In this document: piece by piece, positions 19,922 to 46,937 of the stretch
Layout: every line of letters starts with the position of its first letter
How positions within the stretch are numbered: the first letter of the stretch is position 1
Source of the DNA: Thermoanaerobaculia bacterium
GTDB taxonomy: Bacteria > Acidobacteriota > Thermoanaerobaculia > UBA5066 > DATFVB01
Direction: 5' to 3'
Assembly (NCBI GenBank): GCA_035717485.1
Contig: DASTIQ010000071.1
Span: 4,651 to 68,650 of the forward strand
DNA length: 64,000 nucleotides
Translations under genes and position numbers: made by a program
The notes under the pieces: model-generated
Seen by the model: only the letters and a program-made list of their open reading frames with translations
Told to the model about the DNA's origin: nothing
The model's database searches: none

Positions 19922-20147
19922 GTGCGGATTCTTTCACTGTCCGCATGGTCGCTGCGGCGATTCATCCGGCTGACCGGCCCACGGCCCTAATACACGGCGA
20001 TATTCGCGGCGCCGCGCGTCAGGCGCGAGCGAGACGGGAGGCGGGTCGCCCGGCCCGCGGCCGAGCCGTACCGGCGGCGGCGTACGGCGAGCGCCGCGGG
20101 CGGGCGCACGCGCCCGCATTCGCTCGATGCATGGCGCGCCGCCGATC

Positions 20148-29816: not shown

Positions 29817-29817
29817 G

Positions 29818-30303
29818 TCAGGACGCCTTGCGGATGACCTTCATCCGGTCGATCTTCTTCTGGAGCTGGATGATTCCGTAAAGCAGCGCCTCCGGCCGGG
29901 GAGGGCAGCCGGGGACGTAAACGTCGACCGGAACGATCCGGTCCACGCCCTGGGTGACCGCGTACGTCCGGTACGGTCCGCCGCACGTCGCGCAGGAGCC
30001 CATGGCGATCACCCACTTCGGGTCGGGCATCTGGTCGTAGAGGCGTTTGACGACCGGCGCCATCTTCTCGACGACCGTTCCGGCGACGATCATGAGATCC
30101 GACTGCCGCGGCGTTCCGCGGAACACTTCCGCGCCGAAGCGCGCGAGATCGTGCCGCGCGTCCATGACCGCCATCATCTCGATCGCGCAGCAGGCGAGCC
30201 CGAACTGCATCGGCCAGATCGCGCTCCGCCGCGCCCAGTTGATGACCGAATCGACGGTGGTGGTGAGAACGTTTTCTTCGAACCGGTTGGCGAGGAGGCT
30301 CAT
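29818..30303 (-). CDS. nuoB: NADH-quinone oxidoreductase subunit B
   Basis: N2-cluster ligand motifs [29 protein letters not shown]. Confidence 0.92.
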
Positions 30304-30316
30304 GCGGCGGCGTCCC

Positions 30317-30673
30317 TCATGCCCACTGGAGCGCGCCGCGCTTCCAGGCGTAGAAGTAGCCGACGACGAGGATCGCCAGGAACACGAGCATCTCGACGAA
30401 CCCGAAGATCGCGAGCTTGTCGAGGAGGATCGCCCACGGGAAGAGGAAGATCGTCTCGACGTCGAAGACGACGAAGAGGACGGCGATCAGGAAATACCTC
30501 GCGGAAAATCGGTAATCGAAGGCGGTCGTCGGGGCTTCGATGCCGCATTCGTACGGCTCTCCCTTGGCGGGATTCGGGACGCCGTGCTGGAGGAGCCTCG
30601 CGACGACGATCGTCCCGATCGGCAGCGCTGCCGCGAGGATCGCGAACACCAGGATGAAGAAATACGATTCCAT
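30317..30673 (-). CDS. nuoA: NADH-quinone oxidoreductase subunit A
   Basis: Internal ATG at 30673 of ORF 30317..31360. 118 aa with 3 TM helices. Conserved YECGI and [12 protein letters not shown]. Confidence 0.9.
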
Positions 30674-30696
30674 GCGAGCCCCGGGATTCTCTCGAT

Positions 30697-31782: not shown

Positions 31783-31786
31783 CCGG

Positions 31787-32884
31787 TCAGGGCGCCGGGG
31801 CGCGCGGCGCGGGCACGCGTTCCACGCGATAGACGAGGCCCAGCCCCGGGGTTCCCTTCGCCGCGAGCGCGTCGCGCGCGGCCTGCGCTTCTTCGCGGGA
31901 ACCGTAGTCGCCGAGCATCACCCGATACCAGAGACCCGGCGCGCCGAGATTGATCCCGATCACGCGCAGCGGGCGGGCGAGGACCTTCGAGAGGCGCCCC
32001 GCATCGCGTTCCGCGTTCTCCCGGCGCTGGTAGGAAGAGAAGTGGATCATCCAGACGGGAGCTCCCGTCCAGTCCGGCGAGACCATCGTCGAGCCGCGGG
32101 ATTCGGGAATCGCGGGAACCGGGGCGGCGGGGGGAGCCGCCGGAGAGGACCGGAGGGCTTCCGGCGTCGTCCGCGCGCCGGATCCGGACGAGCCCCCGTC
32201 CGAAGCCGGGACCACGGCCCCGCCCGATACCGGGACCGGGACGCCGGGCGCGGCCGGCCGGCCGTCCTCCGACGTCGCGCCGGCGGGCGGGACCGGCGGA
32301 ACCCGCCGGGTCTTCGCGAAGAACCAGACGCCACCGGCGATCGCGACCACGAGGAGGAACGCGACGAGCTTCCCGCCGCGCGGCGCTGCCGCCGGCCGAT
32401 CCACGGTTTCGAACGCGATCTCCTCGTCGCCCTCTTCCTCCGCCGCCTCCGGCTCCTCCGGGGGGGGAACCGAGCCCGCCGAAGGATGGAGGACGACGCG
32501 GCCCTCCCGTTCGGCCGGAAAAACCTCGAGGCCCGGCGCCGCGTCCGGTTCGCTTCCGAAAGGATCGTCCGGCCCGGCGGAAAAGGCGGTCTCGACGAGC
32601 GCCTCCTCCGGGAAGGGCGCATCCTCGTTCCACCCGCGCGACGCAATCCGTTCGCCGCCCATGTCCGCCGGAAGGAGGCGCACCGCGCGCTCCGCGAGCT
32701 CGGAGAGGGGGGCGGGTGCGAAACCGGTCCGCGTCAGCCGCAGCTCTTCGGCGCAGACCTGCTGGGCCGCCCGGAAGACCTCGCCGCGCCGCTCCGGCGC
32801 GATCCCGAGGCCCCGGACGATCGACTCGACGACTTCGGTGACCGTCGGAACTTTCCGGCGGTCCCGCGGACCGGGCTCCGGCAA
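31787..32884 (-). CDS. bitopic SPOR-domain protein (acidic cytoplasmic N-domain, TM, Pro-rich linker, C-terminal SPOR)
   Basis: TM helix LVAFLLVVAIAGGVWFFA. C-terminal SPOR-like domain (VWMIHFSSYQRRENAERDAGRL...GLWYRVMLGDYGSREEAQAARDAL). Proposed TTG start at 32884 after GGAGAGGAG; start uncertain. Confidence 0.65.
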   Translation of the reverse strand: MPEPGPRDRRKVPTVTEVVESIVRGLGIAPERRGEVFRAAQQVCAEELRLTRTGFAPAPLSELAERAVRLLPADMGGERIASRGWNEDAPFPEEALVETAFSAGPDDPFGSEPDAAPGLEVFPAEREGRVVLHPSAGSVPPPEEPEAAEEEGDEEIAFETVDRPAAAPRGGKLVAFLLVVAIAGGVWFFAKTRRVPPVPPAGATSEDGRPAAPGVPVPVSGGAVVPASDGGSSGSGARTTPEALRSSPAAPPAAPVPAIPESRGSTMVSPDWTGAPVWMIHFSSYQRRENAERDAGRLSKVLARPLRVIGINLGAPGLWYRVMLGDYGSREEAQAARDALAAKGTPGLGLVYRVERVPAPRAPAP

Positions 32885-32898
32885 GGGCTCCTCTCCGC

Positions 32899-33921
32899 TC
32901 AATCCGCGAGGCTCTCCCAGTCGGTCTCGGGCGCGTCGAGCGCGATCGCGAGGCCGCCGTTGGACCCGGCGAAGACCGGGTCTTCGACGGCGCGGACGCG
33001 GCCGCCCCCCATTTCGTCGAGCGTCTTCTCGAGGGCGGCCGCGAGGCCGGGAATCTGCGACCCGCCGCCGGCGAGAATGACGTTGTTCCGGACGTCTTCC
33101 TGGTATTCCGGCTCGACGCGCGAGATCAGGTCGAGCATCGTCTCCGAGATCGGGCCGAGCAGGCTCTCGCACGCGCGCCTCATCTCGGCGGTGATGTCGA
33201 GGTCCGTGGGCTTTCCGTGGACGGGCACCTTCACGACGACCGGCTGCTTCGGCTCTCCGACGAAGCTCCCCTTTTCCTTCCAGTCGCGCACCATGTAGAC
33301 CGAGAAGCGGCCGTCGGGCATCTTGTTGCGGACGAGGGTCGCGAGGTGCTCGTCGACGGCGTCGCCCGCGTTCGTGAGCGTCCGCTGGTCCTCCTCGGTC
33401 GGGTAGCGCCCGTTCATCACGCAGAAATCGGTCGTTCCGGCGCCGATGTCGATGATCATCGTGTGGAGGAGCGAATCCATCCCGTAGGCGACCGCGAATG
33501 GCTCCGAGACGATCATCAGGGAGTCGGCCATGCCGGTGACCGCGTTCCTCAGGTGCTGCTTGGACACGCGGAGCGCCTCGGCCGGAACGCCGACGACGGC
33601 GAAGACCTTCTGCCCTTCCCGGGCGCCGGCGAGCGAGATGAGGTGCCCGAGCAGCTCGCGGACGGCCTGCTCGTCCTTCTGCGAGCCTTCCTTGATGAGG
33701 CCCCGCTCGAGCGGGCGGTGGAGGTCGAGCATGGGGCGGTTGTCGAGCGCTTCCTTCCCGAAGAGCACCGCCTTCTTGACGACCTTCCGGGCGACCATGT
33801 CGACGGGCCACCCCACGTAGCTGTCGACGACGTGGCGCGCCCCGTTCGAGGCGGAAATGGAGCTTCGGGAGGTGCCGAGATCGATTCCGACCTGCAGCAC
33901 CTCGGTTTTCGGTTTGGTCAT
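32899..33921 (-). CDS. MamK-like actin-family (ASKHA) filament protein
   Basis: 340 aa. Phosphate-1 VGIDLGTSRSS. Blocks SYVGWPVDMV, DLHRPLERGLI, IIDIGAGTTDFCVMNGRYPTEEDQRTLTNAGDAVDEHL and NVILAGGGSQIPGLAAALEKTL line up block by block with my recollection of MamK rather than MreB. The ATG overlaps the amidase stop (ATGA). Confidence 0.75.
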   Translation of the reverse strand: MTKPKTEVLQVGIDLGTSRSSISASNGARHVVDSYVGWPVDMVARKVVKKAVLFGKEALDNRPMLDLHRPLERGLIKEGSQKDEQAVRELLGHLISLAGAREGQKVFAVVGVPAEALRVSKQHLRNAVTGMADSLMIVSEPFAVAYGMDSLLHTMIIDIGAGTTDFCVMNGRYPTEEDQRTLTNAGDAVDEHLATLVRNKMPDGRFSVYMVRDWKEKGSFVGEPKQPVVVKVPVHGKPTDLDITAEMRRACESLLGPISETMLDLISRVEPEYQEDVRNNVILAGGGSQIPGLAAALEKTLDEMGGGRVRAVEDPVFAGSNGGLAIALDAPETDWESLAD

Positions 33922-34937
33922 GAAACCCCTTTCCCCGCGGGAGCCGCGTCCCGCGCGAGCCGTTCGGCGGACGTTTCCGGATCGACGATGCGACGGATGC
34001 CGGCGTGGAGCGCGCGGGCGAGCTCGGAACGGTATTCCGGCGTGGCGAGCCGCCGCGCCTCGTCGGCGTTCGAAATGCACGAGATCTCCGCGAGCACCGC
34101 GGGCATGCGGGTCCCGACGAGGACGACGAGCGGCGCGGTCTTCACGCCGCGATTCTGAACGCGGTCGTTGACGTCCCGGAGAGCGTGGAAATACGCGGAC
34201 TGGAGCGTCTCGGCGATCCGGCGCGACTCCTCCTGACGGACGCCCACGTAGACTCCTTCGAGCAGCGTCCTGAAGTCCGCCAGCGAGTAGCCGGAGCCGG
34301 CGTTCTCCCCGCGCGCGAACTTCGCCGTTTCGGGATCGTTCGTGCCGCCGAGGTAGAACGTCTCGATCCCGACGCGATCCGGGACCGGCATCGAATTGAT
34401 GTGGATGGAGAGGAAGAGATCGGCGTTCTCGGCGTTCGCGATCTCGACGCGCCGCTCGAGCGAGAGCGCGCGATCGTCGGCGCGCGTCAGGACGACCGTG
34501 ACCGGAGCGTCCTTCAGCAGCGCGCGGAGCCGCTCGGCGACGTCGAGCGTGATCGTCTTCTCCTCGAGACCCTGCCGCGTCATCGCGCCGGGGTCGCCTC
34601 CCCCGTGGCCGGGGTCGATCACGATCTTCCGGACGGCGAGCCGGAAGAGAGACGGGTCGATCGCCTGCGGCGCCGGAAGCGCGGCGGTCCGGGGGACCGG
34701 CGACGCCGCCGCTCCGGCATCGGCCGTTCGCCGCCGGGAAACGGATGCCCGGACGCCGGGGGTCGCGATGGCGCCGGAGAAGGCGACCAGGAGCGTCGCC
34801 GCGAGCCCGCCGAGGAGCCATCCGTTGACCCCCCGGCGCCGCCGCCGGAGGCCGGCCGGAATCTCGCCGCGCACCGTGGCCAGGTTCTCCCGGACCAGAG
34901 CGCGGATCATCTGCTGCTTGAGGCGGTCTTTTCCCAT
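33918..34937 (-). CDS. membrane-anchored N-acetylmuramoyl-L-alanine amidase (Amidase_3, AmiC/CwlD-like)
   Basis: N-terminal TM helix. Catalytic domain IVIDPGHGGGDPGA, DLFLSIHINS, VLAEISCISN. Confidence 0.88.
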   Translation of the reverse strand: MGKDRLKQQMIRALVRENLATVRGEIPAGLRRRRRGVNGWLLGGLAATLLVAFSGAIATPGVRASVSRRRTADAGAAASPVPRTAALPAPQAIDPSLFRLAVRKIVIDPGHGGGDPGAMTRQGLEEKTITLDVAERLRALLKDAPVTVVLTRADDRALSLERRVEIANAENADLFLSIHINSMPVPDRVGIETFYLGGTNDPETAKFARGENAGSGYSLADFRTLLEGVYVGVRQEESRRIAETLQSAYFHALRDVNDRVQNRGVKTAPLVVLVGTRMPAVLAEISCISNADEARRLATPEYRSELARALHAGIRRIVDPETSAERLARDAAPAGKGVS

Positions 34938-35029
34938 GGGTCGCTGACCGTCAAGTGTAACAGGATGGGATCGATGGGGAGCCGTTCTTGCATGCGCAGC
35001 GGGAGGCGACCGAAAGAGCGCAACCTATA

Positions 35030-36643
35030 ATGGCCGGGCCGCGACGGAACCGCGGCGCGCCGGCGGCGAACGGCGGGACGGGGGAAGACGTGAGACCTCA
35101 GACTCTCGGGGAACTGAAGGAAAGCGGATATCGCGCGCGGAGCGTCAAGGACGAGCTCCGCGAGAACCTGATCGCCCGGCTCCGGCGGGGAGAGGATCCG
35201 TTTCCGGGGATCTTCGGCTATCGCCACACCGTCCTGCCGATGCTCCACAACGCGATCCTCGCGCGCCACGACATCATCCTCCTCGGTCTGCGCGGCCAGG
35301 CGAAGACCCGGCTCCTGCGCTCGCTCGTCAATCTCCTCGACGAGTGGCTCCCGGCGGTCGCGGGAAGCGAGGTCAACGAGAGTCCGTTCGAGCCGATCAC
35401 CGCGTTCGGGCGGCGGATCGTCGGGGAACGGGGCGACGAGACGCCGATCGTCTGGATTCCCCGCAGCGAGCGCTACCGGGAGAAGCTCGCGACTCCCGAC
35501 GTCACGATCGCGGACCTGATCGGCGACATCGATCCGATCAAGGCCGCGACCCAGAAGCGGACCTACTCCGACGAGGAGATCATCCATTACGGGATCGTGC
35601 CCCGCACGAACCGCGGGATCTTCGCGATCAACGAGCTCCCGGACCTGCAGCCGCGCATCCAGGTCGGGTTGCTCAACATCCTCGAAGAGCGCGATCTGCA
35701 GATCCGGGGTTTTCCCGTGCGGATCCCGCTCGACATCCTGCTCGTCTTCTCCGCCAACCCGGAGGACTACACGAATCGCGGGAACATCATCACCCCCCTG
35801 AAGGACCGGATCTCGTCGCAGATCCTCACCCACTATCCCGACGAGGTGAAGACGGCGCGCGCGATCACCGACCAGGAAGCGTGGACCGAGCGCCGCGGCG
35901 AAGTCGAGCTCGAGGTGCCCGAATACTTCAAAGAGCTCGTCGAGAAGATCGCCTTCGCGGCGAGGCAGTCCGAGTTCGTCGACCAGTCCTCCGGCGTCTC
36001 CGCCCGCATGCCGATCTCGGCTCTCGAAATCCTCTATTCGAACCTCGAGCGTCGCGGCATCCTGCGCGGCGAGAAGCGGGTGTTCCCGCGCCTTTGCGAT
36101 CTCCTCGCCTGCCTGCCGGCGATCACCGGGAAAGTCGAGGTCGTCTACGAGGGAGAGCAGCAGGGAACGGAAGTCATCGCGAAGAAGCTCATTTCCGGCC
36201 CGATCGCCGATCTCTTCAAGGAAAAGTTCCCCTCCGTCGATTCGGGGCGGCGCACCGAGCGCGCCCGGACGCCACCGCCCGAAGAGTCCGACGAGCCGCA
36301 GCCCCGGGCCCGTTCGCGCTTCCCCGCCGAGGAACCGGACAAGCTGAATCCCGTGTACCGGGAAATCGTCGACTGGTTCGCCGCCGGCAACCGCATCGAC
36401 ATCTCCGACGAGTCCTCGTTCGCGGACCACGTGAAAGCGCTCGAGTCCGTCCCCGGGCTCCGCCGCGTCGCCGAGGAGCACTTCAAGACGGCCTCCCGCG
36501 AGGAGGCGGCGCTCGCGATGGAGCTCGTCCTCGAGGGACTCACGCAGAACCTGAAGATCGCCCGCGAGGACCTGGACTCGAAGATCAGCTACAAAGAAAT
36601 GTTGAAGTTCAACCTGGTCCGGCAGCGCACACCCGTCAGCTAG
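35030..36643 (+). CDS. AAA+ ATPase of the Mg-chelatase (ChlI/BchI)-like clade
   Basis: Variant Walker A LLGLRGQAKTRLLRSL. Walker B / sensor region GIFAINELPDLQPRIQVGLLNILEE, then LLVFSANPEDYTNRGNIITPLKDR. The ATG at 35030 is chosen over the track start at 34988. TAG stop. Confidence 0.75.
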   Translation: MAGPRRNRGAPAANGGTGEDVRPQTLGELKESGYRARSVKDELRENLIARLRRGEDPFPGIFGYRHTVLPMLHNAILARHDIILLGLRGQAKTRLLRSLVNLLDEWLPAVAGSEVNESPFEPITAFGRRIVGERGDETPIVWIPRSERYREKLATPDVTIADLIGDIDPIKAATQKRTYSDEEIIHYGIVPRTNRGIFAINELPDLQPRIQVGLLNILEERDLQIRGFPVRIPLDILLVFSANPEDYTNRGNIITPLKDRISSQILTHYPDEVKTARAITDQEAWTERRGEVELEVPEYFKELVEKIAFAARQSEFVDQSSGVSARMPISALEILYSNLERRGILRGEKRVFPRLCDLLACLPAITGKVEVVYEGEQQGTEVIAKKLISGPIADLFKEKFPSVDSGRRTERARTPPPEESDEPQPRARSRFPAEEPDKLNPVYREIVDWFAAGNRIDISDESSFADHVKALESVPGLRRVAEEHFKTASREEAALAMELVLEGLTQNLKIAREDLDSKISYKEMLKFNLVRQRTPVS

Positions 36644-36645
36644 CA

Positions 36646-36771
36646 GGCACGGACCATACGCGCCGTTATACGGGCCCGTCGGAACCGCCGGCGGGCTTAG
36701 CGTACGCCCCGGTACGCCGCGCCCGCCGGCCGATCCCGCCGGACCCGTCTTCCAGCACGTCTGGCCGCGCC
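36646..36771 (+). repeat. copy A of a ~125-nt structured repeat (MITE-like or ncRNA / 3'-UTR element)
   Basis: Aligns along its full length with the reverse complement of 60181-60305 (e.g. CGGACCATACGCRCCGTTAT, CGTACGC-N-CCGGTACGCCGCG, GCACGTCTGGCCGC). The termini GGCACGG...CCGCGCC are mutually complementary. It starts 2 nt after the TAG stop of the AAA+ gene. Confidence 0.7.
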
Positions 36772-36902
36772 TTACTGCCATTGCCCCAGGAGATGCGTCG
36801 TCATTGCCAGCGCAGCGAAGCAATCTCCAGTCTTGCGGCTTGCCGTCCGAAAGAGGTTGTTTGGCTCGTGGAGCGCAGCCTCCGCCATAGAATCGGCTGC
36901 TC

Positions 36903-37661
36903 ATGACCGACACGAAGACCAACCTCCGCGTTCGCATCCGATCGGGCGGAAAGCTCCTCGGGTGCTTCCTGACCTGGCCGGTCGGCGGAGCGGTCGAGCT
37001 CCTCGGGCTCGCCGATTTCGATTTTGTCGTCGTCGACGTCGAGCACGGATTCCACGACATCGAATCGGTCGAGAACCTCGTGAGGGCGGCCGACGTCGCC
37101 GGGATCGGCGCGATCGTCCGGCCGCCGCGCTTCGACTCGGACGTCGTGTGCCGCGCCCTCGATGCCGGCGCGGCGGGCATCCTCGCGCCCCGGGTCGGAA
37201 GCGCGACGGACGCGAAGACCACCGTCGAGAACATCAAGTTCGCCCCCGAAGGGCGCCGCGGTCTCGGCGGCGTCCGCGCCAACCGGTACGGCACGCAGCC
37301 CCTCGCCGAGTTCGTCCGCGAATCGAACGACCGGACGGTCGTCGCCGTCCAGATCGAGACGCCGGGAGCGCTGGACGAAGTCGGGGCGATCGCCGCGCTC
37401 CCGGGAGTGGACGTCCTTTTCGTCGGCCCGAACGACCTGACGCAGGCGCTCGGCATTCCCGGGCGGGTCGACGACCGGCGCTACCTCGACGCCCTGAGCC
37501 GGGTCGCGCAGGCCGCCGCGGACCACGGCAAGGCGGCGGGAATCATGCTCGGCCGCCGCGAGCAGATCCCCGCGCTCGCCGAGACCGGCTACCGCTTCTT
37601 CACGACGAGCGACCGGACACTCATGCTGGAGTCGGCGCGCGCGTGGCGCAGCGCGCTATAG
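36903..37661 (+). CDS. HpcH/HpaI family aldolase
   Basis: Motifs DFDFVVVDVEHG, VRPP, VAVQIETPGAL, VDVLFVGPNDL. Confidence 0.82.
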   Translation: MTDTKTNLRVRIRSGGKLLGCFLTWPVGGAVELLGLADFDFVVVDVEHGFHDIESVENLVRAADVAGIGAIVRPPRFDSDVVCRALDAGAAGILAPRVGSATDAKTTVENIKFAPEGRRGLGGVRANRYGTQPLAEFVRESNDRTVVAVQIETPGALDEVGAIAALPGVDVLFVGPNDLTQALGIPGRVDDRRYLDALSRVAQAAADHGKAAGIMLGRREQIPALAETGYRFFTTSDRTLMLESARAWRSAL

Positions 37662-37874
37662 GCGCGCCGATTCTCCTTCTCCCAGAGTCGGAGGCCGGAG
37701 TCTCTCCGCCGTCTCCGTTCTGCTTCTCGCCGCAAGAGCCCCGGGGATAGCTTCAGGGCTCCGGATGGCACCCAAAGCGGTGGCGCGGATGCAATCGCTG
37801 AGAGATAAGGCGCGTCGAGGCGCGAGGCCGCCCGTCTGGCTCGATGCATCGGCGCGCCGCTACAATAGAGCGGG

Positions 37875-38960
37875 ATGCGGTACCGCTACCAGGACTACCC
37901 GGTCGACCTCCTCCGTCAGCTCCTCACCCAGGACGAGCTCACGAAGCTCTTCTGGCAGCTCGTGCTCCAGACGGGCGGAGACGTCGAGGAGGCGCTTCGG
38001 TGGATGGAATACCTGCAGGAGCGCGGTCTCATCGATCCCTCGATCGACCTCGGGAAGTTCCGCGAGGAGCTGGAGAAGCGCGAGCTGATCGAGAACCGGG
38101 GCGGCGCGGCGGTGCTGACCGGCGCCGCGGAACGCCAGATCCGCCGGCAGGCGCTCGAGGAAGTCTTCTCGTCGCTCAAGAAATCGGGGGCCGGCTATCA
38201 CGCGACCCCGAAGACGGGGACGGGAGGCGACCTCGTCCCCGAGACCCGGCCCTACGAATTCGGCGACAACCCGACCGCGATCGACGGCGTCCGGACGATC
38301 GGCAACGCCGTCCGGCGCGACGCCACGGAGATCGACCTGCGCGAGGAGGATTTCGAGGTTTATTCGACCGAGCATCAGACGTCGTGCGCGACCGTGATCG
38401 CGATCGACATCTCGCATTCGATGGTCCTCTACGGGGAAGACCGGTTCACGCCGGCGAAGAAGGTCGCGCTCGCGATGGTCGAGCTCATCCAGGCGAAGTA
38501 CCCGAAGGACACGATCGACGTCGTTCTCTTCGGCGACGATGCGAAGCGGATCCCGATCTCCGAGATCTCGAAGACGCAGGTCGGCCCCTTCCACACGAAC
38601 ACGAAGGCGGGACTCGCGCTCTCGCGGAAGATCCTGCAGCACAAGAAGAACCCGAACAAGCAGATCTTCATGATCACGGACGGCAAACCGTCCGCCATCT
38701 TCGATCGCGGCAAGCTCTACAAGAACCCGTTCGGGCTGGATCTCAAGATCGTCAACCGCACGCTCGAGGAAGCGGACGCCTGCCGCCGCGACGGCATCAC
38801 GATCACGACGTTCATGATCGCGACCGACCAGTATCTCGTCGAGTTCGTCGAGAAGCTCACGAAGATCAACCGCGGGCGGGCCTACTACGCGTCGCCCTAC
38901 AACCTCGCGGAATTCCTCTTCTCGGACTACATCCGGAACCGGAAGAAATTCCTCCACTGA
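37875..38960 (+). CDS. VWA domain protein (CoxE/BchD-like partner of the AAA+ ATPase)
   Basis: MIDAS motif VIAIDISHSM, then ITDGKPSA and TITTFMIA. The N-terminal helical domain is typical of CoxE-like VWA proteins. Confidence 0.8.
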   Translation: MRYRYQDYPVDLLRQLLTQDELTKLFWQLVLQTGGDVEEALRWMEYLQERGLIDPSIDLGKFREELEKRELIENRGGAAVLTGAAERQIRRQALEEVFSSLKKSGAGYHATPKTGTGGDLVPETRPYEFGDNPTAIDGVRTIGNAVRRDATEIDLREEDFEVYSTEHQTSCATVIAIDISHSMVLYGEDRFTPAKKVALAMVELIQAKYPKDTIDVVLFGDDAKRIPISEISKTQVGPFHTNTKAGLALSRKILQHKKNPNKQIFMITDGKPSAIFDRGKLYKNPFGLDLKIVNRTLEEADACRRDGITITTFMIATDQYLVEFVEKLTKINRGRAYYASPYNLAEFLFSDYIRNRKKFLH

Positions 38961-39033
38961 TCGCCTCGGCGCGATCAGTGGAGACTCGAGTCGCGAGTCG
39001 GCGGGTCCAGAGTCGGGCGCCCCCCGGTTCCCG

Positions 39034-39062
39034 GACTCGCGACTCGCGACTCGCGACTTCGC
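39034..39062. repeat. heptamer tandem repeat (GACTCGC x3 plus one imperfect unit), right arm of an inverted repeat
   Basis: GACTCGC repeats at 39034, 39041 and 39048, with GACTTCGC at 39055. CGACTCGCGACTC (39040-39052) is the exact reverse complement of GAGTCGCGAGTCG (38988-39000). Confidence 0.8.
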
Positions 39063-39074
39063 TAGGATTAGCGG

Positions 39075-39620
39075 ATGAGCAGAATCACGAAGATCGGCCG
39101 ATCCAAAACGGCGGGCCCCGTTCGCGCGGCGCTCGACCGGATGGCGGAGCAGCGCGGGAACGTCCCGAACATGTTCCGGATCGTGGCGCACCGGCCGGAG
39201 CTGATGACGACGATGCTCGCCCACTTCGCCGAGGTGATGAAGGACACGACCGTGCCGGTCCGCCTGAAGGAGCTGCTGGCGGTCCAGACCTCGCTCGCGA
39301 ACTCCTGCGCCTATTGACTGCGCTCCCACACCGCTCTGGCAGAGCGGTTCGGAGCGACGAAAGAGCAGATCGAATCGGTCCTCGATTTCGAGAACGGGCC
39401 GTACGACGAACGGGAGAAGGCGGCACTCCGGTTCGGACTCCGGATGACGAAGGACGCCCCGAACATGACCGACGGGGACGTCGCGGCCCTCCGCGCGCAC
39501 TGGTCGGAGGGGGAAGCCGTCGAGATCGCCGCCGTCGTCGGGACCTTCAACTACTTCAACCGCTTCAACGACGCGTTCGGCGTGGAGCCCACCGGGCCCG
39601 GAGAAGGAATCGACAGCTGA
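39075..39620 (+). CDS. AhpD/carboxymuconolactone decarboxylase-family peroxidase-related protein, probable selenoprotein (TGA at 39315-39317 read as Sec)
   Basis: The track ORF stops at ...SLANSCAY-TGA. The same frame continues LRSHTALAERFG... to TGA at 39618-39620. The family motif CxxCxxxH is present as C-A-Y-TGA-L-R-S-H, and a SECIS-like hairpin follows. Confidence 0.7.
39330..39348 (+). promoter_or_regulatory. candidate bacterial SECIS hairpin
   Basis: ACCGCTCT-GGC-AGAGCGGT: a perfect 8-bp stem with a G-first apical loop. The stem begins 12 nt after the in-frame TGA. Confidence 0.55.
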
Positions 39621-39677
39621 GCGCCGGGCGCGCGCCGGAACGGAAACCCTCCGGGACGGCCCGCCGCCGCTCGGCCC

Positions 39678-40973
39678 CTAACCGGTCGCGGGCAGGAAGC
39701 TCAATTGCGCCGGGTCGAAGCGGGTCATCCGGATGATCCCGTCGCGGATGCCGTCGTGATTGATGTCGGGGCCGGCGTATTTCCAGACGATGTCGCCGGT
39801 CGGCGAGATCTCGAAGACGTGCCCCGTCATCGACTCGGTCACGAGCGTGTTCCCGTTGGCGAGGCGCTGGGCGGCACCCGACGCCTTCGAAAAGAATCCC
39901 TTCGACGGCGCGTACCGCCACACCACGCGATCGGTCAGCGGGTCGACCTCGATGAGCTGCGAACGCTCCGTGCCGTTGTCGAAGACGAGGATGTGCCCGT
40001 CCGGGAGGAGGCGCGGGTCGTGCTGGTACGTGAGGTTCCCCGGCCCCCACAGCCAGACGATCTTCTCCGCGTCCGGCACGCGGGGATCGACGATCGCGAT
40101 GGCGTTCAGGTTCCGGATGGAGACGAGGAGATTGCCGCGCGCGTAGATCGGTGAGCGCGCGGCGAGGCGCCCGTCGAACGACTCGACGTGATTGGTGTGG
40201 AAGACGTCGAGCGCATGGATCGACGCCGGGATCGGCGCCTGCTCGAGACGCGGGAGGAGAAAGCGGTATCCGGAGCGCTCGAGGAGCGGGAGGATCGGGA
40301 TCTTGCGCAGGATCGACCCGTTCGGGTCGAGGAACGTGATCGCGTCCGCTTCGATCGGCAGCGTCGGGTGGATCGCCGGGACGATCTCGGGAGTCCGGCT
40401 CAGGACGAGGAGGTCGCCGTTCCCCGCGGGCCAGACGTCGTGATGCGCGCGAAGCGAAATCCTCCAGACGATCTTCGAGTCGCGATCGACCTTGACGACG
40501 GCCAGGTCCTTCAACGTGAAGACGACGGATCCGTCCGGCAGCAGCTCGGCGTGCTCGAGCCACGGGTTTTCCTTCCGGAACACCGCCGCGTCGATCTGCC
40601 ATCTCCAGAGGACCTTTCCGTCCATGTCCATCAGGTAAGCCCGCGGAGCGCCCCGGCACCAGGGAGCGATGAAGTTCACGCCGGGCGACGTGCGCGCCCG
40701 GTCCCACTTGATGATCCCGGTCGCCGGATTCGGATCGTACGACTGCAGGATGTACGGGAGGTTCTGCAGAGCCGCGAAGTTCTGGGCGGACTGGCCGCGG
40801 ACTTCCTGTTCGGTGCCGGGCGGGGGCGGCGGCCGGCGGGCCGGGGCGGGAGCCCCGGTCGTCAGAGCCGCCGGCCGGGCGGCGAGACGCGCCCGCCAGC
40901 CGAAGAACGCGAGCGGAACCGTCCAGAGTCCGACGGCCAGATAGACTCCTCCCCTCGACCTTGTCCGGAACAT
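39678..40973 (-). CDS. arylsulfotransferase (ASST)-like beta-propeller protein, N-terminally membrane-anchored or secreted
   Basis: Real gene at the 3' end of the artefactual 1987-aa ORF, starting at the ATG at 40973 (MFRTRSRGGVYLAVGLWTVPLAFF). Repeated propeller-like blades (LLPDGSVVF, LLPDGHILVFDNG, LANGNTLV) and HTNH / HHD motifs. Confidence 0.6.
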   Translation of the reverse strand: MFRTRSRGGVYLAVGLWTVPLAFFGWRARLAARPAALTTGAPAPARRPPPPPGTEQEVRGQSAQNFAALQNLPYILQSYDPNPATGIIKWDRARTSPGVNFIAPWCRGAPRAYLMDMDGKVLWRWQIDAAVFRKENPWLEHAELLPDGSVVFTLKDLAVVKVDRDSKIVWRISLRAHHDVWPAGNGDLLVLSRTPEIVPAIHPTLPIEADAITFLDPNGSILRKIPILPLLERSGYRFLLPRLEQAPIPASIHALDVFHTNHVESFDGRLAARSPIYARGNLLVSIRNLNAIAIVDPRVPDAEKIVWLWGPGNLTYQHDPRLLPDGHILVFDNGTERSQLIEVDPLTDRVVWRYAPSKGFFSKASGAAQRLANGNTLVTESMTGHVFEISPTGDIVWKYAGPDINHDGIRDGIIRMTRFDPAQLSFLPATG

Positions 40974-41027
40974 CTCTTCATTCTGGACAAAGACCCCGAG
41001 GGCGTCAAGAAATAGAATCGTCGGCCC

Positions 41028-44000
41028 ATGGGTTCCGGCGCCGACGTCCCCTTCCACGCCCCCGTCGCGGACTGGTTTCGATCGTCGTTCGAGGCGCCGA
41101 CGCCGGCGCAGCGGCTCGGCTGGCCCTCCATCGTCGTGGGCCGGTCGGCGCTCGTCCTCGCGCCGACCGGCTCCGGCAAGACGCTCGCCGCCTTCCTCGC
41201 CGGCCTCGACCGGCTGATGTTCTCTCCCGAGCCGCCGCGCGAGCGCCGGTGCCGGATCCTCTACGTGTCTCCGCTCAAGGCGCTCGCCGTCGACGTCGAG
41301 CGGAACCTGCGCGCGCCGATCGCGGGGATTTCCGCGGCGGCGGAGCGCTCCGGAACCGCGTACCGCGTTCCCTCGATCTTCGTCCGGAGCGGCGACACGC
41401 CGGCCGCCGACCGCGCCGCGATGCGCCGGCACCCGCCGGACATCCTCATCACGACCCCGGAATCGCTCTATCTGATCCTGACGTCGCAGGCGCGGGAAGT
41501 GCTCGCCTTCGTCGAGACGGTGATCGTCGACGAGATCCACTCGCTCGTTCCGGGCAAGCGAGGCGCACACCTGGCCGTCTCGCTCGAGCGTCTGGAAGCT
41601 CTCCGCGGCGACGCTCCCCCTCTCCAGCGCGTCGGCCTGTCGGCGACCGTGCGTCCCGAATCGGAAGCCGCGCGCCTGCTCGCCGGAGGAACGATCGATC
41701 GCGCCGGCCGATGGCGGATGCGCCCGGTCGAGGTGATCGACGCGCGCAGCCGGAAGCCGTTCGAGCTCTCGGTCGAAGTGCCGGTCGAGGACATGACGCG
41801 GCTCGGCGACGAGGAGCCGATCCCGAGCGGACCCGCCGCGGCCCGGCCGAAGAGGTCGATCTGGCCCTCGATCCACCCTCGTCTCCTCGAGCTCGTTCGC
41901 GCGCACCGGTCCACGATGATCTTCGTCAACAGCCGGCGGCTCGCCGAACGGCTGGCCGGGGCGCTGAACGACCTGGCCGGCGAGGAAGTGGCGCTCGCGC
42001 ACCACGGATCGGTCTCCCGCGAGCGCCGCCTGGTGATCGAGGACCGGCTGAAGCGCGGCGACCTGCCGGCGATCGTCGCGACGTCGTCGCTCGAGCTCGG
42101 GATCGACATGGGCGCGGTCGATCTCGTCGTCCAGATCGAGGCTCCTCCCTCGGTCGCGAGTGGAATGCAGAGAATCGGCCGCGCCGGCCACCGCGTCGGC
42201 GCGCCGTCGAAGGGAATCATCCTGCCGAAGTATCGCGGCGACCTCCTCGCCTCGGCCGCCGTCGCGCGGCGAATGGAAGAGGGGCTCGTCGAAGAGTCGT
42301 TCGCGCCGAGGAATCCCCTCGACGTCCTCGCCCAGCAGGTCGTCGCGATCGCGAGCGACGGAACGCACGACGTCGACGAGCTCTTCGCGATGGTCCGGCG
42401 GGCGGCCGCCTTCTCCGATCTTCCCCGCTCCGCGTTCGAAGGCGTGCTCGACATGCTCTCCGGCCGGTATCCGTCCGACGAGTTCGCCGAGCTCCGGCCG
42501 CGACTCGTCTGGAACCGCGCGAAGGGAACGGTGCGCGGCCGGGAAGGCGTCCGCAGCGTCGCCGTCGCCAACGCCGGGACGATTCCCGACCGCGGGCTCT
42601 ACGGGGTCTTCCTCGCCGGGCAGGAGAAGGGGAAGAGCGCGCGGGTCGGCGAGCTCGACGAAGAGATGGTGTTCGAGAGCCGCGAGGGGGACGTCTTCCT
42701 GCTCGGGGCATCCTCGTGGCGAATCGAGGAGATCACGCACGACCGCGTCGTCGTCTCCCCCGCTCCCGGCGAGCCGGGGAAGATGCCCTTCTGGCACGGG
42801 GACCGCGCGGGGCGTCCCGTCGAGCTCGGCCGCGCGATCGGCGCGCTCGCGCGCGAGCTCGCCGGCACCGCGCCCGCGGAAGCGGCGCGACGCCTGCGGG
42901 CGGAAGGGCTCGACGCGAAAGCCGCGAAGAACCTCCTCGCCTATCTCGCCGATCAGAAGGAAGCGACCGGCGAGGTTCCGAGCGACCGCACGATCGTCGT
43001 CGAACGCAATCGCGACGAGGTCGGCGACTGGCGCGTCTGCGTCCATTCGCCGTTCGGCGGAAAGGTCCACGCCCCCTGGTCGATGGCCGTCGAGGCCAAG
43101 ATCCGGAGGGAGACGGGACTCGAGGTGGAGACGCTCTGGAGCGACGACGGGATGGTCTTCCGGTTCCCCGAATCCGACGCGCCCCCGGAAACGGGACTCT
43201 TCTTCCCCGACCCCGCCGAGGCGGAGTCGCTCGTGACCGAAAGGCTTCCCGAGACCTCGCTCTTCGCCGCGCATTTCCGGGAGGCCGCCGGCCGCGCGCT
43301 CCTCCTGCCGCGCCGGCGGCCGGGAATGCGCCAGCCCCTCTGGCGGCAGCGGAAGCGCTCCGCCGACCTGCTCTCGGTCGCCTCGCGCTTCCCTTCGTTC
43401 CCGATCATCCTCGAGACGTACCGCGAATGCCTGAAGGACGTCTTCGACCTGCCCGGGCTCGCCGGGATCCTCGGCGACGCGCGGGCCCGGAAGATCCGGA
43501 TCGCGGCCGTCGACACCGACGCGCCCTCTCCCTTCGCCGCCTCGCTCCTCTTCTCGTACGTCGCGAACTTCATCTACGACGGCGACGCTCCGCTCGCCGA
43601 GCGCCGGGCGCAGGTGCTGTCGGTCGATCTCGCTCAACTCAAGGAGCTCCTCGGCGAGGCCGACCTGCGCGACCTCCTCGACGGCGGCGCGATCGAGGAG
43701 GTCGAGCGCCGGGCGCAGGGGCTCGGCGAAGGGCGCCGAGTGTCGTCGGCCGACTCGCTGCACGGCCTCCTGCTCCGGGTGGGAGACCTCGCCTCTCCGG
43801 AGATCGCGCGGCGGGCCGACCCGGCGGCGCCGGTGGAGGAATGGCTCCGGCAGCTCGAGGACGAACGCCGCATCGCGCGGGTCGCCGTCGCCGGGGAGGA
43901 GCGCTGGATCGCGGCGGAGGACCTCGGCCGATACCGCGACGCGGCCGGAGTCGTGCCGCCCCGCGGCTATCCGGAGGCGCTCCTCGCGCCGGTCGCCGAC

Positions 44001-45458
44001 GCGGCGGGCGATCTCGTCGGCCGCTTTGCGCGCACGCACGGGCCGTTCCTCCCGGGAGACGCCGCGCGGCGGCTCGGGATGGCGGAATCGGCCGTGCGAG
44101 CCGCGCTCGATCGTCTCGCCGAGCGGGGACGGGTCGCGCCCGGGAGCTTCCGCGCCGCCGCCCCCGAGCGGGAATGGTGCGACGTCGAGGCGCTCCGCGC
44201 GATCAAGCAGAAGTCGATGGCGAGGCTCCGCCGCCAGGCCGAGCCGCAGCCCCGCAGCGCTCTCGCGCGGCTCGCCGTCGCCTGGAACGCCATCGGAGAG
44301 CGCCGGCGCGGGCCTGAAGCGCTCTGGAGCGCGATCGAGCAGCTGCAGGGGTGCGCGCTGCCGGCCTCGGTTCTCGAAACGGAGATTCTTCCGGCGCGCG
44401 TCGAGGGCTATCGGCCCGCCGACCTCGATCTGTTGTGCGCAACCGGGGAAGTCGTGTGGTGCGGCATCGAGCCGATCGGCGACCGCGACGGACGCGTGGC
44501 GCTCTTCCTCGCGGACCGAGCCTCGACGCTGGCCCCGCTCCCCCGGTCGGCCGGCGACGAGCTGCCGCGGCGCGTGCTCGAGGTCCTCGGTCGGCGGGGC
44601 GCCTCGTTCTTCGCCGACGTGCAGCGGGAACTCGGCGCGTTCACCGGGGATCTGGCCGAGGCGCTCTGGGATCTCGTGTGGGCGGGCCGCATCACGAACG
44701 ACACTCTCGCTCCCCTTCGGAGCCGGATCGGAAAATCGACGCGGCAGGCCCGGAAAGAAGGTACCGGAAACCTCCGCCGGCCGCGGCTCTCCCCGCCCGG
44801 CACCGAGGGAAGATGGTCGCTCGTTCCCGCGCCGGCGCGCCGCGACGCCGAGTCCGCCCTCGCGCTCGCGCGGCAGCTGCTCGAGCGGTATGGCGTCCTG
44901 ACGCGAGAGGCGGTGCGCGCGGAGGGGGTTCCCGGCGGATTTTCGTCGCTCTACCGGGTCCTCCGGCAGATGGAGGAAGCGGGGCGGATCCGGCGGGGGT
45001 ATTTCGTCGAAGGGATGGGCGCGGCGCAGTTCGCCGTTCCCGGCGCGGAAGAACGCCTTCGGGTTCCCGACCGGGAGCCGAAGACGGTCGTCCTCGCCGC
45101 GACCGACCCGGCGAACCTCTACGGGGCATCCCTCCCCTGGCCCGACGCCGCCGGTCCTCGCCCTCAGCGGACGCCGGGGGCTCTCGTCGTCGTCCGCGAC
45201 GGAGAGCTCCTCGCCTTTCTTCCCCGCGGGGAAAGGGAAGTGACGCTGTTCGGCGAGGCGCCGGCCGCGGCGGTCGCCGAAGCGCTGGCGGCCCGCGCCT
45301 CGATGCCGGGCCGGCGCGGGCTCCTGATCACCCGGATCGGCGGCGAGGAAGCGGCCTCGTCCCCCGCCGCCGAGGCGTTCCGGAAACACGGCTTCTCGGC
45401 CAGCCGATCGGGCCTTCTCCGCCGGCCGTCGAAGTCGTCGGAGGGCGAAGATGCCTGA
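41028..45458 (+). CDS. lhr: ATP-dependent helicase Lhr (large helicase-related, SF2)
   Basis: 1476 aa. Motif I APTGSGKT, motif II VDEIH, then SAT, HHGSVSRERR, RIGRAGH. The long Lhr-type C-terminal extension is present. Confidence 0.9.
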   Translation: MGSGADVPFHAPVADWFRSSFEAPTPAQRLGWPSIVVGRSALVLAPTGSGKTLAAFLAGLDRLMFSPEPPRERRCRILYVSPLKALAVDVERNLRAPIAGISAAAERSGTAYRVPSIFVRSGDTPAADRAAMRRHPPDILITTPESLYLILTSQAREVLAFVETVIVDEIHSLVPGKRGAHLAVSLERLEALRGDAPPLQRVGLSATVRPESEAARLLAGGTIDRAGRWRMRPVEVIDARSRKPFELSVEVPVEDMTRLGDEEPIPSGPAAARPKRSIWPSIHPRLLELVRAHRSTMIFVNSRRLAERLAGALNDLAGEEVALAHHGSVSRERRLVIEDRLKRGDLPAIVATSSLELGIDMGAVDLVVQIEAPPSVASGMQRIGRAGHRVGAPSKGIILPKYRGDLLASAAVARRMEEGLVEESFAPRNPLDVLAQQVVAIASDGTHDVDELFAMVRRAAAFSDLPRSAFEGVLDMLSGRYPSDEFAELRPRLVWNRAKGTVRGREGVRSVAVANAGTIPDRGLYGVFLAGQEKGKSARVGELDEEMVFESREGDVFLLGASSWRIEEITHDRVVVSPAPGEPGKMPFWHGDRAGRPVELGRAIGALARELAGTAPAEAARRLRAEGLDAKAAKNLLAYLADQKEATGEVPSDRTIVVERNRDEVGDWRVCVHSPFGGKVHAPWSMAVEAKIRRETGLEVETLWSDDGMVFRFPESDAPPETGLFFPDPAEAESLVTERLPETSLFAAHFREAAGRALLLPRRRPGMRQPLWRQRKRSADLLSVASRFPSFPIILETYRECLKDVFDLPGLAGILGDARARKIRIAAVDTDAPSPFAASLLFSYVANFIYDGDAPLAERRAQVLSVDLAQLKELLGEADLRDLLDGGAIEEVERRAQGLGEGRRVSSADSLHGLLLRVGDLASPEIARRADPAAPVEEWLRQLEDERRIARVAVAGEERWIAAEDLGRYRDAAGVVPPRGYPEALLAPVADAAGDLVGRFARTHGPFLPGDAARRLGMAESAVRAALDRLAERGRVAPGSFRAAAPEREWCDVEALRAIKQKSMARLRRQAEPQPRSALARLAVAWNAIGERRRGPEALWSAIEQLQGCALPASVLETEILPARVEGYRPADLDLLCATGEVVWCGIEPIGDRDGRVALFLADRASTLAPLPRSAGDELPRRVLEVLGRRGASFFADVQRELGAFTGDLAEALWDLVWAGRITNDTLAPLRSRIGKSTRQARKEGTGNLRRPRLSPPGTEGRWSLVPAPARRDAESALALARQLLERYGVLTREAVRAEGVPGGFSSLYRVLRQMEEAGRIRRGYFVEGMGAAQFAVPGAEERLRVPDREPKTVVLAATDPANLYGASLPWPDAAGPRPQRTPGALVVVRDGELLAFLPRGEREVTLFGEAPAAAVAEALAARASMPGRRGLLITRIGGEEAASSPAAEAFRKHGFSASRSGLLRRPSKSSEGEDA

Positions 45459-46224
45459 GGGCGACACGATCTCCCGCGCCGCCTTCACCCTCCGCCGCGC
45501 GCTCGCCGGACAGACCGTCCGGAGCTTCCGTTCGGTCGCCGGGAACGGAGCGCTGGCCGGCCGCCGCATCGAAGCCGTCGAGTCGGCGGGCAAGAATCTC
45601 CTCGTGCGATTCGACGACGGCCGGATGCTTCGAACGCACATGCGGATGCACGGTTCGTGGCATCTCTATCGCCCGGGCGAGGCGTGGCGGAAACCCGCCG
45701 GCTTTGCGCGCGTCGTTCTCGAGACGGACGACTGGACGGCCGTCTGTTTCTCGGCTCCCGTCGTCGAGATCCTGCGCGCCGGAGAGGAACGTTCCCATCC
45801 CGCTCTCTCGCGTCTGGGACCCGACATCGTCGGCGGCGCCTTCGACGCGGACGAGGCGATCGCGCGGCTGCGGCGCCATCCCGAGCTCGAGATCGGCGAC
45901 GTGCTCCTGCGGCAGGACGCGATCTCGGGAATCGGAAACATCTGGAAGTCGGAGACGCTCTTTCGCTGTCGGGTCGATCCCTTCGCCCGGGTCGCCTCGC
46001 TCCCCGACCGCGCCCTTTCGGAGATCGTGTCGACGGCGCGACGGCTGATGGCGGCGCGCGCGGGCGCGGCGAGCGATCCCCGGCGGACGACGCTCGCGGG
46101 GTGGGCCGTGTATCGACGGAGCGGCCGGCCGTGCCGCCGGTGCGGGACGGCGGTCGCGATGCGCCGCCAGGGGCGGGACCGGAGAAGCACGTACTACTGC
46201 CCGGGCTGCCAGGGGACGCCGTGA
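45451..46224 (+). CDS. nei: Fpg/Nei family DNA glycosylase (endonuclease VIII-like)
   Basis: N-terminal MPEGDT catalytic start, H2TH region (GIGNIWKSETLFRCRVDP) and C-terminal zinc finger CRRCG...YYCPGCQ. It overlaps lhr by 8 nt. Confidence 0.88.
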   Translation: MPEGDTISRAAFTLRRALAGQTVRSFRSVAGNGALAGRRIEAVESAGKNLLVRFDDGRMLRTHMRMHGSWHLYRPGEAWRKPAGFARVVLETDDWTAVCFSAPVVEILRAGEERSHPALSRLGPDIVGGAFDADEAIARLRRHPELEIGDVLLRQDAISGIGNIWKSETLFRCRVDPFARVASLPDRALSEIVSTARRLMAARAGAASDPRRTTLAGWAVYRRSGRPCRRCGTAVAMRRQGRDRRSTYYCPGCQGTP

Positions 46225-46937
46225 CGCGGCGAATCTCCGGCACCCGCCGCTATGCCCTCCTCCTCGCGAAGGTCGCGAAGCGCTTCGGTCGGATCGCCGC
46301 CCGGAACCGCGGACAGGTCTCGTGCCGCGCCGGGTGCTTCGGATGCTGCGTCGGTGTCTTCGAGATCTCTTCGCTCGACGCGGCGCTCGCGGCACGCGGT
46401 CTCGCGAAGCTGCCGAAAGCGCGCCGCGAGGCGATCGCGCGGCGCGGCGAGGCGATCGCCCGCCGGATCGCCGGGACCTTTCCCGGCGATCCCGCCACCC
46501 TGGTCCTCGACGTCCGCCGCGAGGAGACGTGGGACGCGTTCTTCGAGACGACGACCGGAATCGCCTGTCCCTTCCTCGAGCCGGTCGATGGTCGCGCCCG
46601 CACCACCGCCGCGTCGGCGGCGCGAGCGCGTCGCTGGCCTCAGGGATTCGCCTGCGCGATCTACGCCGACCGTCCGCATGCCTGCCGCACGTTCGGCCTG
46701 CCGCTCGCGGACCGCGGAGAGATCGTTTCGGACCCGTGCCGGCTGAACTTTCGCGGCTCTTCTCCGGCCGCGATCGCGGCGGCCGCGCTTCCCCTCTACG
46801 AGCCGGAGGAAGAGGAGATCGCCCGCACCGCGCAGGCCGAAGAAGCGCTGCCCGTAGACGCCGCCACGATTCTCCCCGCCGTCGCGGCGGGAAGGTTCCC
46901 GTTCGCGCCTATTTCGAGTAAGAGATCCGGTAGATAG
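46221..46937 (+). CDS. YkgJ family cysteine-cluster protein (UPF0153)
   Basis: The GTG at 46221 overlaps the nei stop (GTGA). Motif CRAGCFGCCVG with later CPFL and ACAIYADRPHACR. Confidence 0.7.
   Translation: MTRRISGTRRYALLLAKVAKRFGRIAARNRGQVSCRAGCFGCCVGVFEISSLDAALAARGLAKLPKARREAIARRGEAIARRIAGTFPGDPATLVLDVRREETWDAFFETTTGIACPFLEPVDGRARTTAASAARARRWPQGFACAIYADRPHACRTFGLPLADRGEIVSDPCRLNFRGSSPAAIAAAALPLYEPEEEEIARTAQAEEALPVDAATILPAVAAGRFPFAPISSKRSGR

Follow-up and report, generated by a model that had tools for sequence, protein, structure and literature searches.

Does an in-frame TGA that falls on a redox-active cysteine end the gene in which it lies, or is it read as selenocysteine (Sec)? This question is raised by an AhpD-like gene in a 64-kb stretch of DNA (the window, 64,000 nucleotides in full) from a Thermoanaerobaculia bacterium of the phylum Acidobacteriota. 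A first-pass annotation, made from the letters alone, had proposed that the gene continues past the TGA as a selenoprotein of the CxxU type. On comparative grounds we consider it very probable that window 39075–39620 is a genuine Sec-encoding AhpD-like gene in which UGA codon 81 is recoded, while Sec insertion as such, and its dependence on SelB, is what we infer from sequence.

A TGA codon at the second redox cysteine

The gene is a single AhpD core on the (+) strand, with an ATG at 39075, 181 codons and a TGA stop, codon 81 being TGA as well. Orthologue N-termini keep the start as MSRI, MARI or MPRI. An 80-codon open reading frame (ORF) closes at ...SLANSCAY-TGA, after which the same frame stays open for 100 further codons; the motif around the TGA is C78-A-Y-[TGA]-L-R-S-H85 and the peptide across residue 81 reads ELLAVQTSLANSCAY-X-LR, with X marking the TGA position. 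With Cys in place of the TGA in the family query, the joined product matches PF02627 (carboxymuconolactone decarboxylase, CMD; E 1e-17) and NCBIfam TIGR01926 "peroxidase-related enzyme" (85.3 bits versus a curated cutoff of 81.8). Database homologues number more than 1000, the best 56 of which are nearly all exactly 181 residues long and 52–66% identical over the full length. The curated "(seleno)protein" AhpD relative NF053654 (YciW-related; 60.8 bits versus a cutoff of 310), NF041238 (CFYUT; 38.2 versus 175) and NF041047 (GSU3128; 24.6 versus 110) all score below their cutoffs, and no canonical AhpD or PcaC equivalog model is found among the NCBIfam matches at E <= 0.01. The window protein thus has the fold and motif of canonical AhpD and PcaC yet lies outside those subfamilies.

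Sequence matches in the PDB (2PRR, 2PFX, 2OYO, 3C1L, 6K40 and Bmp8) align their C-x-x-C-x-x-x-H to C78/U81/H85. At least 90% of aligned homologues have Cys in the TGA column; after it, Ser84 is invariant and His85 nearly so. Conservation is much lower at the first Cys of CxxC, which in the family is often Thr, Ser, Ala or Gly, and many Cys forms have made these same exchanges at Cys78. The first-pass annotation had given the extent of both ORF parts correctly, and its assignment of the joined product to the AhpD/CMD fold and of the TGA to the second Cys of CxxCxxxH is borne out by the domain and PDB matches, by the alignment to Cys-containing homologues and by the fold of the orthologue P0002 described below. 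Public gene calls indeed cut the gene to 80 residues, as had been anticipated, while others render the TGA as Trp. In a six-frame scan of G+C content at third codon positions (GC3) only two TGAs of the 64-kb window have a strong coding signal on both sides, and since that of codon 81 is one of these the joined gene is more than a chance reading.

Conservation of the TGA was assessed by scanning GTDB with each species represented by a single genome, which gave 80 orthologous loci, all from Acidobacteriota metagenome-assembled genomes. The codon at the TGA position is TGA at 21 of these, TGC at 51 and TGT at 8 (Cys total 59). An additional TGA orthologue, L084 355–900 in a Joint Genome Institute (JGI) metagenome record, is rendered there as Trp (protein P0003), apparently through an alternative genetic code; it still has the hairpin ACCGCTCT-GGC-AGAGCGG. 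None of the 21 TGA loci has another in-frame stop before the usual C-terminus, and the most distant TGA forms have only 50% protein identity. One of the two findings named at the outset as speaking against Sec, orthologues that stop at the TGA and show no conservation beyond it, was looked for and is not the case. Three deep clades of a neighbour-joining tree consist of TGA forms, with a single Cys form (L059) nested among them, and the Acidobacteriaceae clades of the AhpD-like gene are all Cys. The nearest relative, L001 (OY970224.1), is a closed 3.84-Mb chromosome that is syntenic with window 29246–47841 at some 81% nucleotide identity; its AhpD-like protein is 91% identical and its gene has the TGA too. 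Between the window and L001 the ratio of nonsynonymous to synonymous change (pN/pS) is 0.12 for codons 1–80 and 0.16 for codons 82–181, so that purifying selection acts alike on the codons before and after the TGA.

At least 20 metagenome runs of soil, rice paddy and sediment, belonging to 13 studies, contain the 1-kb gene region. Contigs of four independent studies cover the site and differ from the window elsewhere only, with zero differences at the TGA itself, and a 211-nt soil metatranscriptome contig crosses both TGA and hairpin with its sole difference outside them. TGA is also the stop of 28 of the 36 confident window ORFs, the AhpD-like gene included, so that a reassigned genetic code does not apply. 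Given the conserved TGA, the open frames, the pN/pS values, the independent contigs and the use of TGA as a stop, a pseudogene, a sequencing error and a code change are excluded as far as sequence data allow.

Trp, Gly and Ser also occur at position 81 of homologues. That all three are mistranslated TGAs was considered and rejected: this holds for Trp (P0003) only, Gly (GGC) and Ser (TCC) being genuine substitutions. In the loci L085 and L087 (P0049 and P0045) the nucleophile is accordingly gone, with Gly or Ser at 81, and the rest of the protein is kept; P0045 has a Cys at position 84 (…Y-S-V-R-C-H…), directly before the conserved His85.

The hairpin downstream of the TGA

A perfect 8-bp hairpin 12 nt after the TGA, with the geometry of a bacterial Sec insertion sequence (SECIS), formed the second part of the first-pass proposal. 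The hairpin, ACCGCTCT-GGC-AGAGCGGT, is present at that place with its loop starting 20 nt past the TGA, and it can now be refined to a phylogenetically conserved core of 7 bp (39331–39347), the eighth, A-U pair forming in only 7/22 sequences, enclosed by an outer 6-bp stem. This lower stem forms in many orthologues but in another register and is for that reason less certain than the core. The core has a computed free energy of −11.5 kcal/mol and the extended form one of −23.6 kcal/mol, with a fold z-score of −3.4 and none of 200 shuffles as stable. The bacterial SECIS consensus (PMC13188914) comprises an apical loop of 3–9 nt, an upper stem of 4–16 bp, a G at one or both of the first two loop positions, a UGA-loop distance of 16–37 nt and a minimum free energy (MFE) of −7.5 kcal/mol or lower. 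The window hairpin lies within all of these published limits: its loop is a 3-nt GGC (GGC in 22/22 TGA sequences) that begins with GG, its stem has 8 bp (7–8 bp in all 22), its loop stands 20 nt from the UGA at an offset identical in all 22, and the energy of the core is well on the stable side. Like the hairpin of E. coli fdhF and of the consensus underlying the bSECISearch model (PMC13188914), it sits inside the coding region right after the UGA; it differs from these in being minimal, a perfect 7–8 bp stem with a GGC loop and without a bulged U.

All seven core pairs are formed in each of the 22 TGA sequences, with the GGC loop at a fixed offset, whereas none of the 59 Cys loci has more than three consecutive pairs in that register (0/59 with the hairpin). 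Pairing amounts to 91.5%, compared to 31–53% in shifted-register controls. At three pairs we observe double-sided compensatory changes, 17 cells versus 5.0 ± 3.0 in shuffled alignments, with 0/500 shuffles reaching 17. The compensation spans codon borders and goes along with residue changes: Glu90 GAG becomes Arg AGG or AGA together with Leu88 CTG to TTG, and a further compensatory partner change takes Ala87 from GCT to GCC or GTC (Ala to Val). Codon use points the same way. Ala89 is GCA in 22/22 TGA forms (codon entropy 0), compared to GCG 22, GCC 21, GCA 5 and GCT 5 in the Cys forms (entropy 1.70); Arg91 is CGG in 22/22 TGA forms, Arg90 is limited to the rare AGA and AGG, and the flanking codons for Ser84, His85 and Gly93 are equally free in both sets. 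The hairpin is lost in the nested Cys form L059 and in the Gly and Ser variants. Taken over pairing, covariation and codon use, these data indicate that the hairpin is under structural selection in the TGA forms, the main weight of this case lying on covariation and codon freezing. Table 1 collects the coordinates.

Table 1. Coordinates of the AhpD-like gene, its predicted recoding elements and related features (window positions unless a locus is given)
Feature	Position	Strand	Remarks
Shine-Dalgarno-like AGGA	39064–39067	+	7 nt 5' of the ATG; direct sequence reading
AhpD-like (TIGR01926) predicted selenoprotein gene, full length	39075–39620	+	codon 81 = UGA
Glu66 codon GAG, proposed proton relay	39270–39272	+	invariant, 12 residues before Cys78 (three alignments)
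Cys78 codon TGC, resolving Cys of CxxU (predicted role)	39306–39308	+	in 22/22 TGA forms
In-frame TGA, predicted Sec codon, residue 81	39315–39317	+	orthologue codons, metagenome contigs, Alkaliphilus U
Extended lower stem, 6 bp (39321–39326 with 39351–39356)	39321–39356	+	encloses the core hairpin
His85 codon CAC, CxxCxxxH active-site His	39327–39329	+	Sec +4; 22/22 TGA and 59/59 Cys loci
bSECIS-type hairpin, 8-bp stem, GGC triloop 39338–39340	39330–39348	+	pairing, covariation, codon use
Terminal stop codon TGA	39618–39620	+	sequence reading
AhpD-like/lpd neighbourhood	L002 2906–4309; L090 10712–12139; L085 1963–3369; L087 2918–4324		

In one of the TGA-AhpD genomes, L044, a second gene of interest lies 9 kb from the AhpD-like gene (19246–20442 (−), TGA at 19896). 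It encodes a secreted-looking AhpC/TSA-Redoxin protein with tetratricopeptide repeats (TPR) and has a peroxiredoxin (Prx)-type active site, W-A-S-W-[TGA]-G-C, followed at +18 to +34 by CCTGCCA-GGC-TGGCAGG, a hairpin with a perfect 7-bp stem whose distance to the TGA exceeds that of the AhpD genes by one nt. This gene, unrelated to AhpD, is a candidate second selenoprotein and fits a type published as "Prx-like (UGC-containing)". With its uniform 7-bp stem and GGC triloop, the hairpin may be an easy feature by which to look for further selenoproteins in Acidobacteriota, the L044 gene being such a candidate; the combination "TGA + GGC-triloop hairpin" as a stand-alone selenoprotein finder was rejected because of its background of ~1e-3.

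Decoding of the UGA and alternative readings

In the decoding that we propose, a ribosome arriving at the UGA would meet the mRNA hairpin, the GGC loop of which starts 20 nt farther on; this structure would recruit SelB-GTP-Sec-tRNA(Sec), upon which Sec would be inserted, and after unwinding of the hairpin translation would proceed to the true stop. That the phylum has Sec machinery follows from the acidobacterium Solibacter usitatus, for which the supplements of Zhang et al. 2006 (PMC1794560) contain SelA, SelB and two FdhA selenoproteins, the selenoprotein count for Acidobacteria in that study being 4. One of the TGA loci, L061, is labelled Candidatus Solibacter.

Several results weigh against Sec decoding or narrow the evidence for it. 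Within the 64-kb window and ~1.25 Mb of orthologous flanks, no selA, selB or selD was found by tblastn with E. coli queries and no tRNA-Sec by ARAGORN; the sel genes are simply not linked to the AhpD-like gene. The MFE of the 60 nt after the codon is no different between TGA and Cys forms (p = 0.25), and this overall comparison was replaced by the position-specific pairing, covariation and codon-entropy tests given above. No Rfam match to the hairpin was obtained, either with the whole window at the gathering threshold or with 39200–39450 at E <= 10, and the GGC-triloop hairpin motif alone is common in GC-rich DNA, at ~1e-3 per position. Two TGC forms from the window's nearest clade, L089 501–1046 and L090 10001–10546, keep 6 and 7 hairpin pairs, as a result of which the contrast of 22/22 with 0/59 is partly phylogenetic. 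The peptide T-A-L-A-E-R is encoded in both, as in the window, and in each the 3' arm is weakened by a single change without compensation; their hairpins read as fossil SECIS elements after recent Sec-to-Cys switches. The structure model discussed below is that of the Cys orthologue P0002 (65% identical, of equal length) and not that of the window protein. Finally, neither lpd (dihydrolipoyl dehydrogenase) nor ahpC lies beside the window's own gene, and because this gene stands alone we can only infer the electron donor in the window organism.

Three other accounts of the locus have to be set against Sec decoding, and the flanking search just given bears on the one that concedes most to it. In this account the UGA is decoded and the full-length protein is made, with Ser, Cys or another residue at position 81 supplied by an allo-tRNA suppressor or by a tRNA(Cys) that resembles tRNA(Sec) and is brought in by SelB. 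Allo-tRNAs that are possible nonsense suppressors occur in Acidobacteria and selC* tRNA(Cys) opal suppressors in other phyla (Mukai et al., PMC5389517), and the missing Sec machinery in the window and flanks would fit; selC* genes, however, are not reported from Acidobacteria (PMC5389517), a general suppressor needs no local hairpin and would conflict with TGA as the main stop, the hairpin has SelB-type bacterial SECIS geometry and appears structurally selected, and the recoded site is the very redox Cys that is Sec in a published Alkaliphilus homologue. We therefore regard such decoding as improbable. The related notion that UGA and hairpin together form a locally programmed, hairpin-dependent sense codon, read without selenium by a non-canonical tRNA, we hold to be highly improbable. 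It may also be argued that the hairpin is no SECIS at all: that it arises from coding for the conserved peptide H-T-A/V-L-A-E/R-R, or is an element of the mRNA with another, unrelated role, and that read-through of the UGA is independent of it. The Cys relatives that retain most of the hairpin with the same peptide, the frequency of the motif in GC-rich DNA and the lack of an Rfam match would all agree with this. Yet double-sided compensation preserves the pairs where the peptide has diverged (Glu90 to Arg, Leu CTG to TTG, Ala to Val), the rare codons GCA, TTG and AGA/AGG are fixed only in TGA forms next to unconstrained flanking codons, the copies in the two Cys forms are each weakened by a change that nothing compensates, as would be a decaying fossil SECIS, and L059 and the Gly and Ser variants are without the hairpin; an incidental hairpin is extremely unlikely in our judgement.

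The least credible account is that the TGA is a true stop, be it in a pseudogene, a recent nonsense mutant or through a sequencing error, with only an 80-residue fragment or nothing functional being made. TGC to TGA is a one-base change, the gene callers output the 80-residue ORF, and the same window has a private TGA of just this kind in nuoD (see below), where other strains have TGC. The TGA of the AhpD-like gene, on the other hand, is common to 21 species-level genomes in three deep clades and down to 50% identity, with the frame intact in all 21; it recurs in the contigs of four independent studies, purifying selection acts on the half of the gene behind it, and the catalytic His85 and most of the fold come after it. 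A true stop is in effect refuted by the shared TGA, the open frames, the independent contigs and the selection on the second half, and recoding of UGA codon 81 as Sec is the reading that we retain.

Relatives, predicted chemistry and surroundings

AhpD-like CxxU selenoproteins are, as had been asserted at the outset, an established family. They are known from Sargasso Sea and Global Ocean Sampling (GOS) data ("AhpD-like 1", COG2128, 299 Sec genes, and "AhpD-like 2", PF02627) and have been described from genomes too; the families are listed in PMC2398784 and PMC13188914, and the latter, a 2026 review, names "AhpD-like protein, TIGR01926, CxxU". The closest published comparison is the Alkaliphilus metalliredigenes member (Zhang & Gladyshev; PMC1794560, supplementary file 4), ...QRGNVPNMFRTLAHRP...NDCGYULSSHTALAKRFG...FNYFNRFNNAL..., which is known here from its protein sequence alone. 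The window protein is 44% identical to it over the full length (E 2e-54), with U aligned with the TGA, and the two have in common C-x-Y-U-L-x-S-H with the same Sec position and, right after this motif, the stretch H-T-A-L-A-(K/E)-R-F-G. Among the published AhpD-like proteins of Zhang & Gladyshev, as among those of Acidobacteriota, Cys homologues far outnumber Sec forms. The two sets, of one family, differ in host, Acidobacteriota here and Firmicutes or marine metagenomes for the published AhpD-like selenoproteins, and, unlike in the published set, the Sec form here is widespread and apparently old within the phylum.

The window gene, then, is an unannotated member of a selenoprotein family described some twenty years ago. 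What is new is modest: the host phylum, the apparent antiquity of the Sec form within it, the uniform minimal hairpin, the fossil hairpins in Cys forms and the lpd neighbour treated below. Within Acidobacteriota the Sec form seems to be ancient, and fossil hairpins remain where Cys took the place of Sec later on. In practical terms the finding corrects annotation, as a full-length redox enzyme is output as an 80-residue fragment or with a mistranslated Trp in at least 22 Acidobacteriota genomes. The organism is found in soil and rice-paddy metagenomes of many studies, and with it a soil-dominant phylum joins the hosts of the AhpD-like selenoprotein family; by implication these bacteria may need selenium for part of their oxidative-stress defence. 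General selenoprotein biology is unchanged by the finding.

The AlphaFold2 (AF2) model of P0002 is all-alpha, with a predicted local distance difference test score (pLDDT) of 95.6 and template-modelling (TM) scores of 0.86–0.88 to AhpD-core structures; residue 81 lies in the first turn of helix 79–91 and Cys78 just before this helix. The structures 2PRR (Ralstonia), 2PFX (Silicibacter), 2OYO, 3C1L and 6K40 (Deinococcus radiodurans AhpD) share the all-alpha fold, the length and C-x-x-C-x-x-x-H, and in 2PRR, 2PFX and 6K40 a His is aligned with His85; they differ in having a Cys nucleophile and only 22–27% identity, and for most of them, which come from structural genomics, no substrate is defined. 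Like the window protein, Mycobacterium tuberculosis AhpD (1KNC/1GU9) has an upstream Glu at the same spacing from its CxxC...H active site. In overall fold the canonical AhpD structures 1KNC, 1GU9 and 1LW1 are distant from the P0002 model (Foldseek TM 0.54–0.60, E 0.2–0.4). The debrominase Bmp8 (6OHI/6OHJ), a CMD-fold, thiol-dependent reductive dehalogenase, is much nearer (TM 0.83, sequence match E 1e-12) and likewise has Cys-based redox chemistry at the equivalent site; it acts by other substrate chemistry, and the window is without a bmp-type gene cluster. Bmp8 makes clear that the fold alone does not dictate peroxidase function.

A nucleophile, a resolving Cys and a His-Glu relay constitute the established chemistry of the AhpD family. 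By analogy, Sec81 would be the nucleophile that attacks a peroxide or an oxidised thiol partner, for example a peroxiredoxin, Cys78 would resolve the intermediate to give a Cys78-Sec81 selenenylsulfide, His85 and Glu66 would form the proton relay and a dithiol donor would re-reduce the enzyme; these catalytic roles of Sec81, Cys78, His85 and Glu66 are assigned from the relatives. In the window's nearest clade (L002, TGA; L090, L085 and L087, Cys, Gly or Ser) a dihydrolipoyl dehydrogenase gene (TIGR01350, 571–577 bits versus a cutoff of 409) follows some 30–370 nt downstream of the AhpD-like gene, which in these four loci is also flanked by a divergent gene for a periplasmic binding protein. 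The pairing of the AhpD-like gene with lpd suggests a functional link in this clade. It echoes the Lpd-dependent recycling of M. tuberculosis and suggests supply from NADH by way of Lpd(-lipoamide), as in the AhpC-AhpD-DlaT-Lpd system of that organism.

Upstream of the window gene lie genes for an AAA_5 ATPase, an HpcH/HpaI aldolase and a von Willebrand factor A (VWA) protein, and downstream a convergent arylsulfotransferase-like gene and an Lhr helicase gene. The space between the VWA and AhpD-like genes (38977–39063) holds a very stable long hairpin (−69 kcal/mol, z −4.0) made of GAGTCGCGAGTC / GACTCGCGACTC repeats and without a T tract; its conservation does not extend to L001, and in one strain 21 nt are inserted at 39047. 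Between the AAA_5 and aldolase genes, 36674–36746 is a strain-variable spot in contigs of several metagenomes, the variants being a joint that skips 71 nt and at least 3 alternative short inserts.

The other TGA of the GC3 scan lies in nuoD, the gene for complex I subunit D (27965–29041 (−), TGA at 28603–28601), which reads '...GARLTLN*MRIGG...'; the coding signal is strong on either side, and an ATG follows the TGA immediately. As a Sec site it was rejected: the aligned residue is Tyr or Phe in solved homologues, and the sequence after the TGA forms no significant hairpin. In two other metagenomes every contig that covers the site has TGC (Cys) there, including one of 683 nt that shows no other difference, which is why the nuoD TGA is private to this assembly, as an error or a recent nonsense mutation. 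A second nuoD paralogue, 42% identical, is found at 61983–63131 (+), and the two together imply two complex I-type operons in the 64-kb window. Lastly, a repeat of ~125 nt (77–85% identity) occurs at window 20014–20140 and 59997–60130 and at L001 8496–8629 and 9832–9953, one of the L001 copies lying just 5' of the L001 AhpD-like gene; it may be an element like a repetitive extragenic palindrome (REP) or a miniature inverted-repeat transposable element (MITE).

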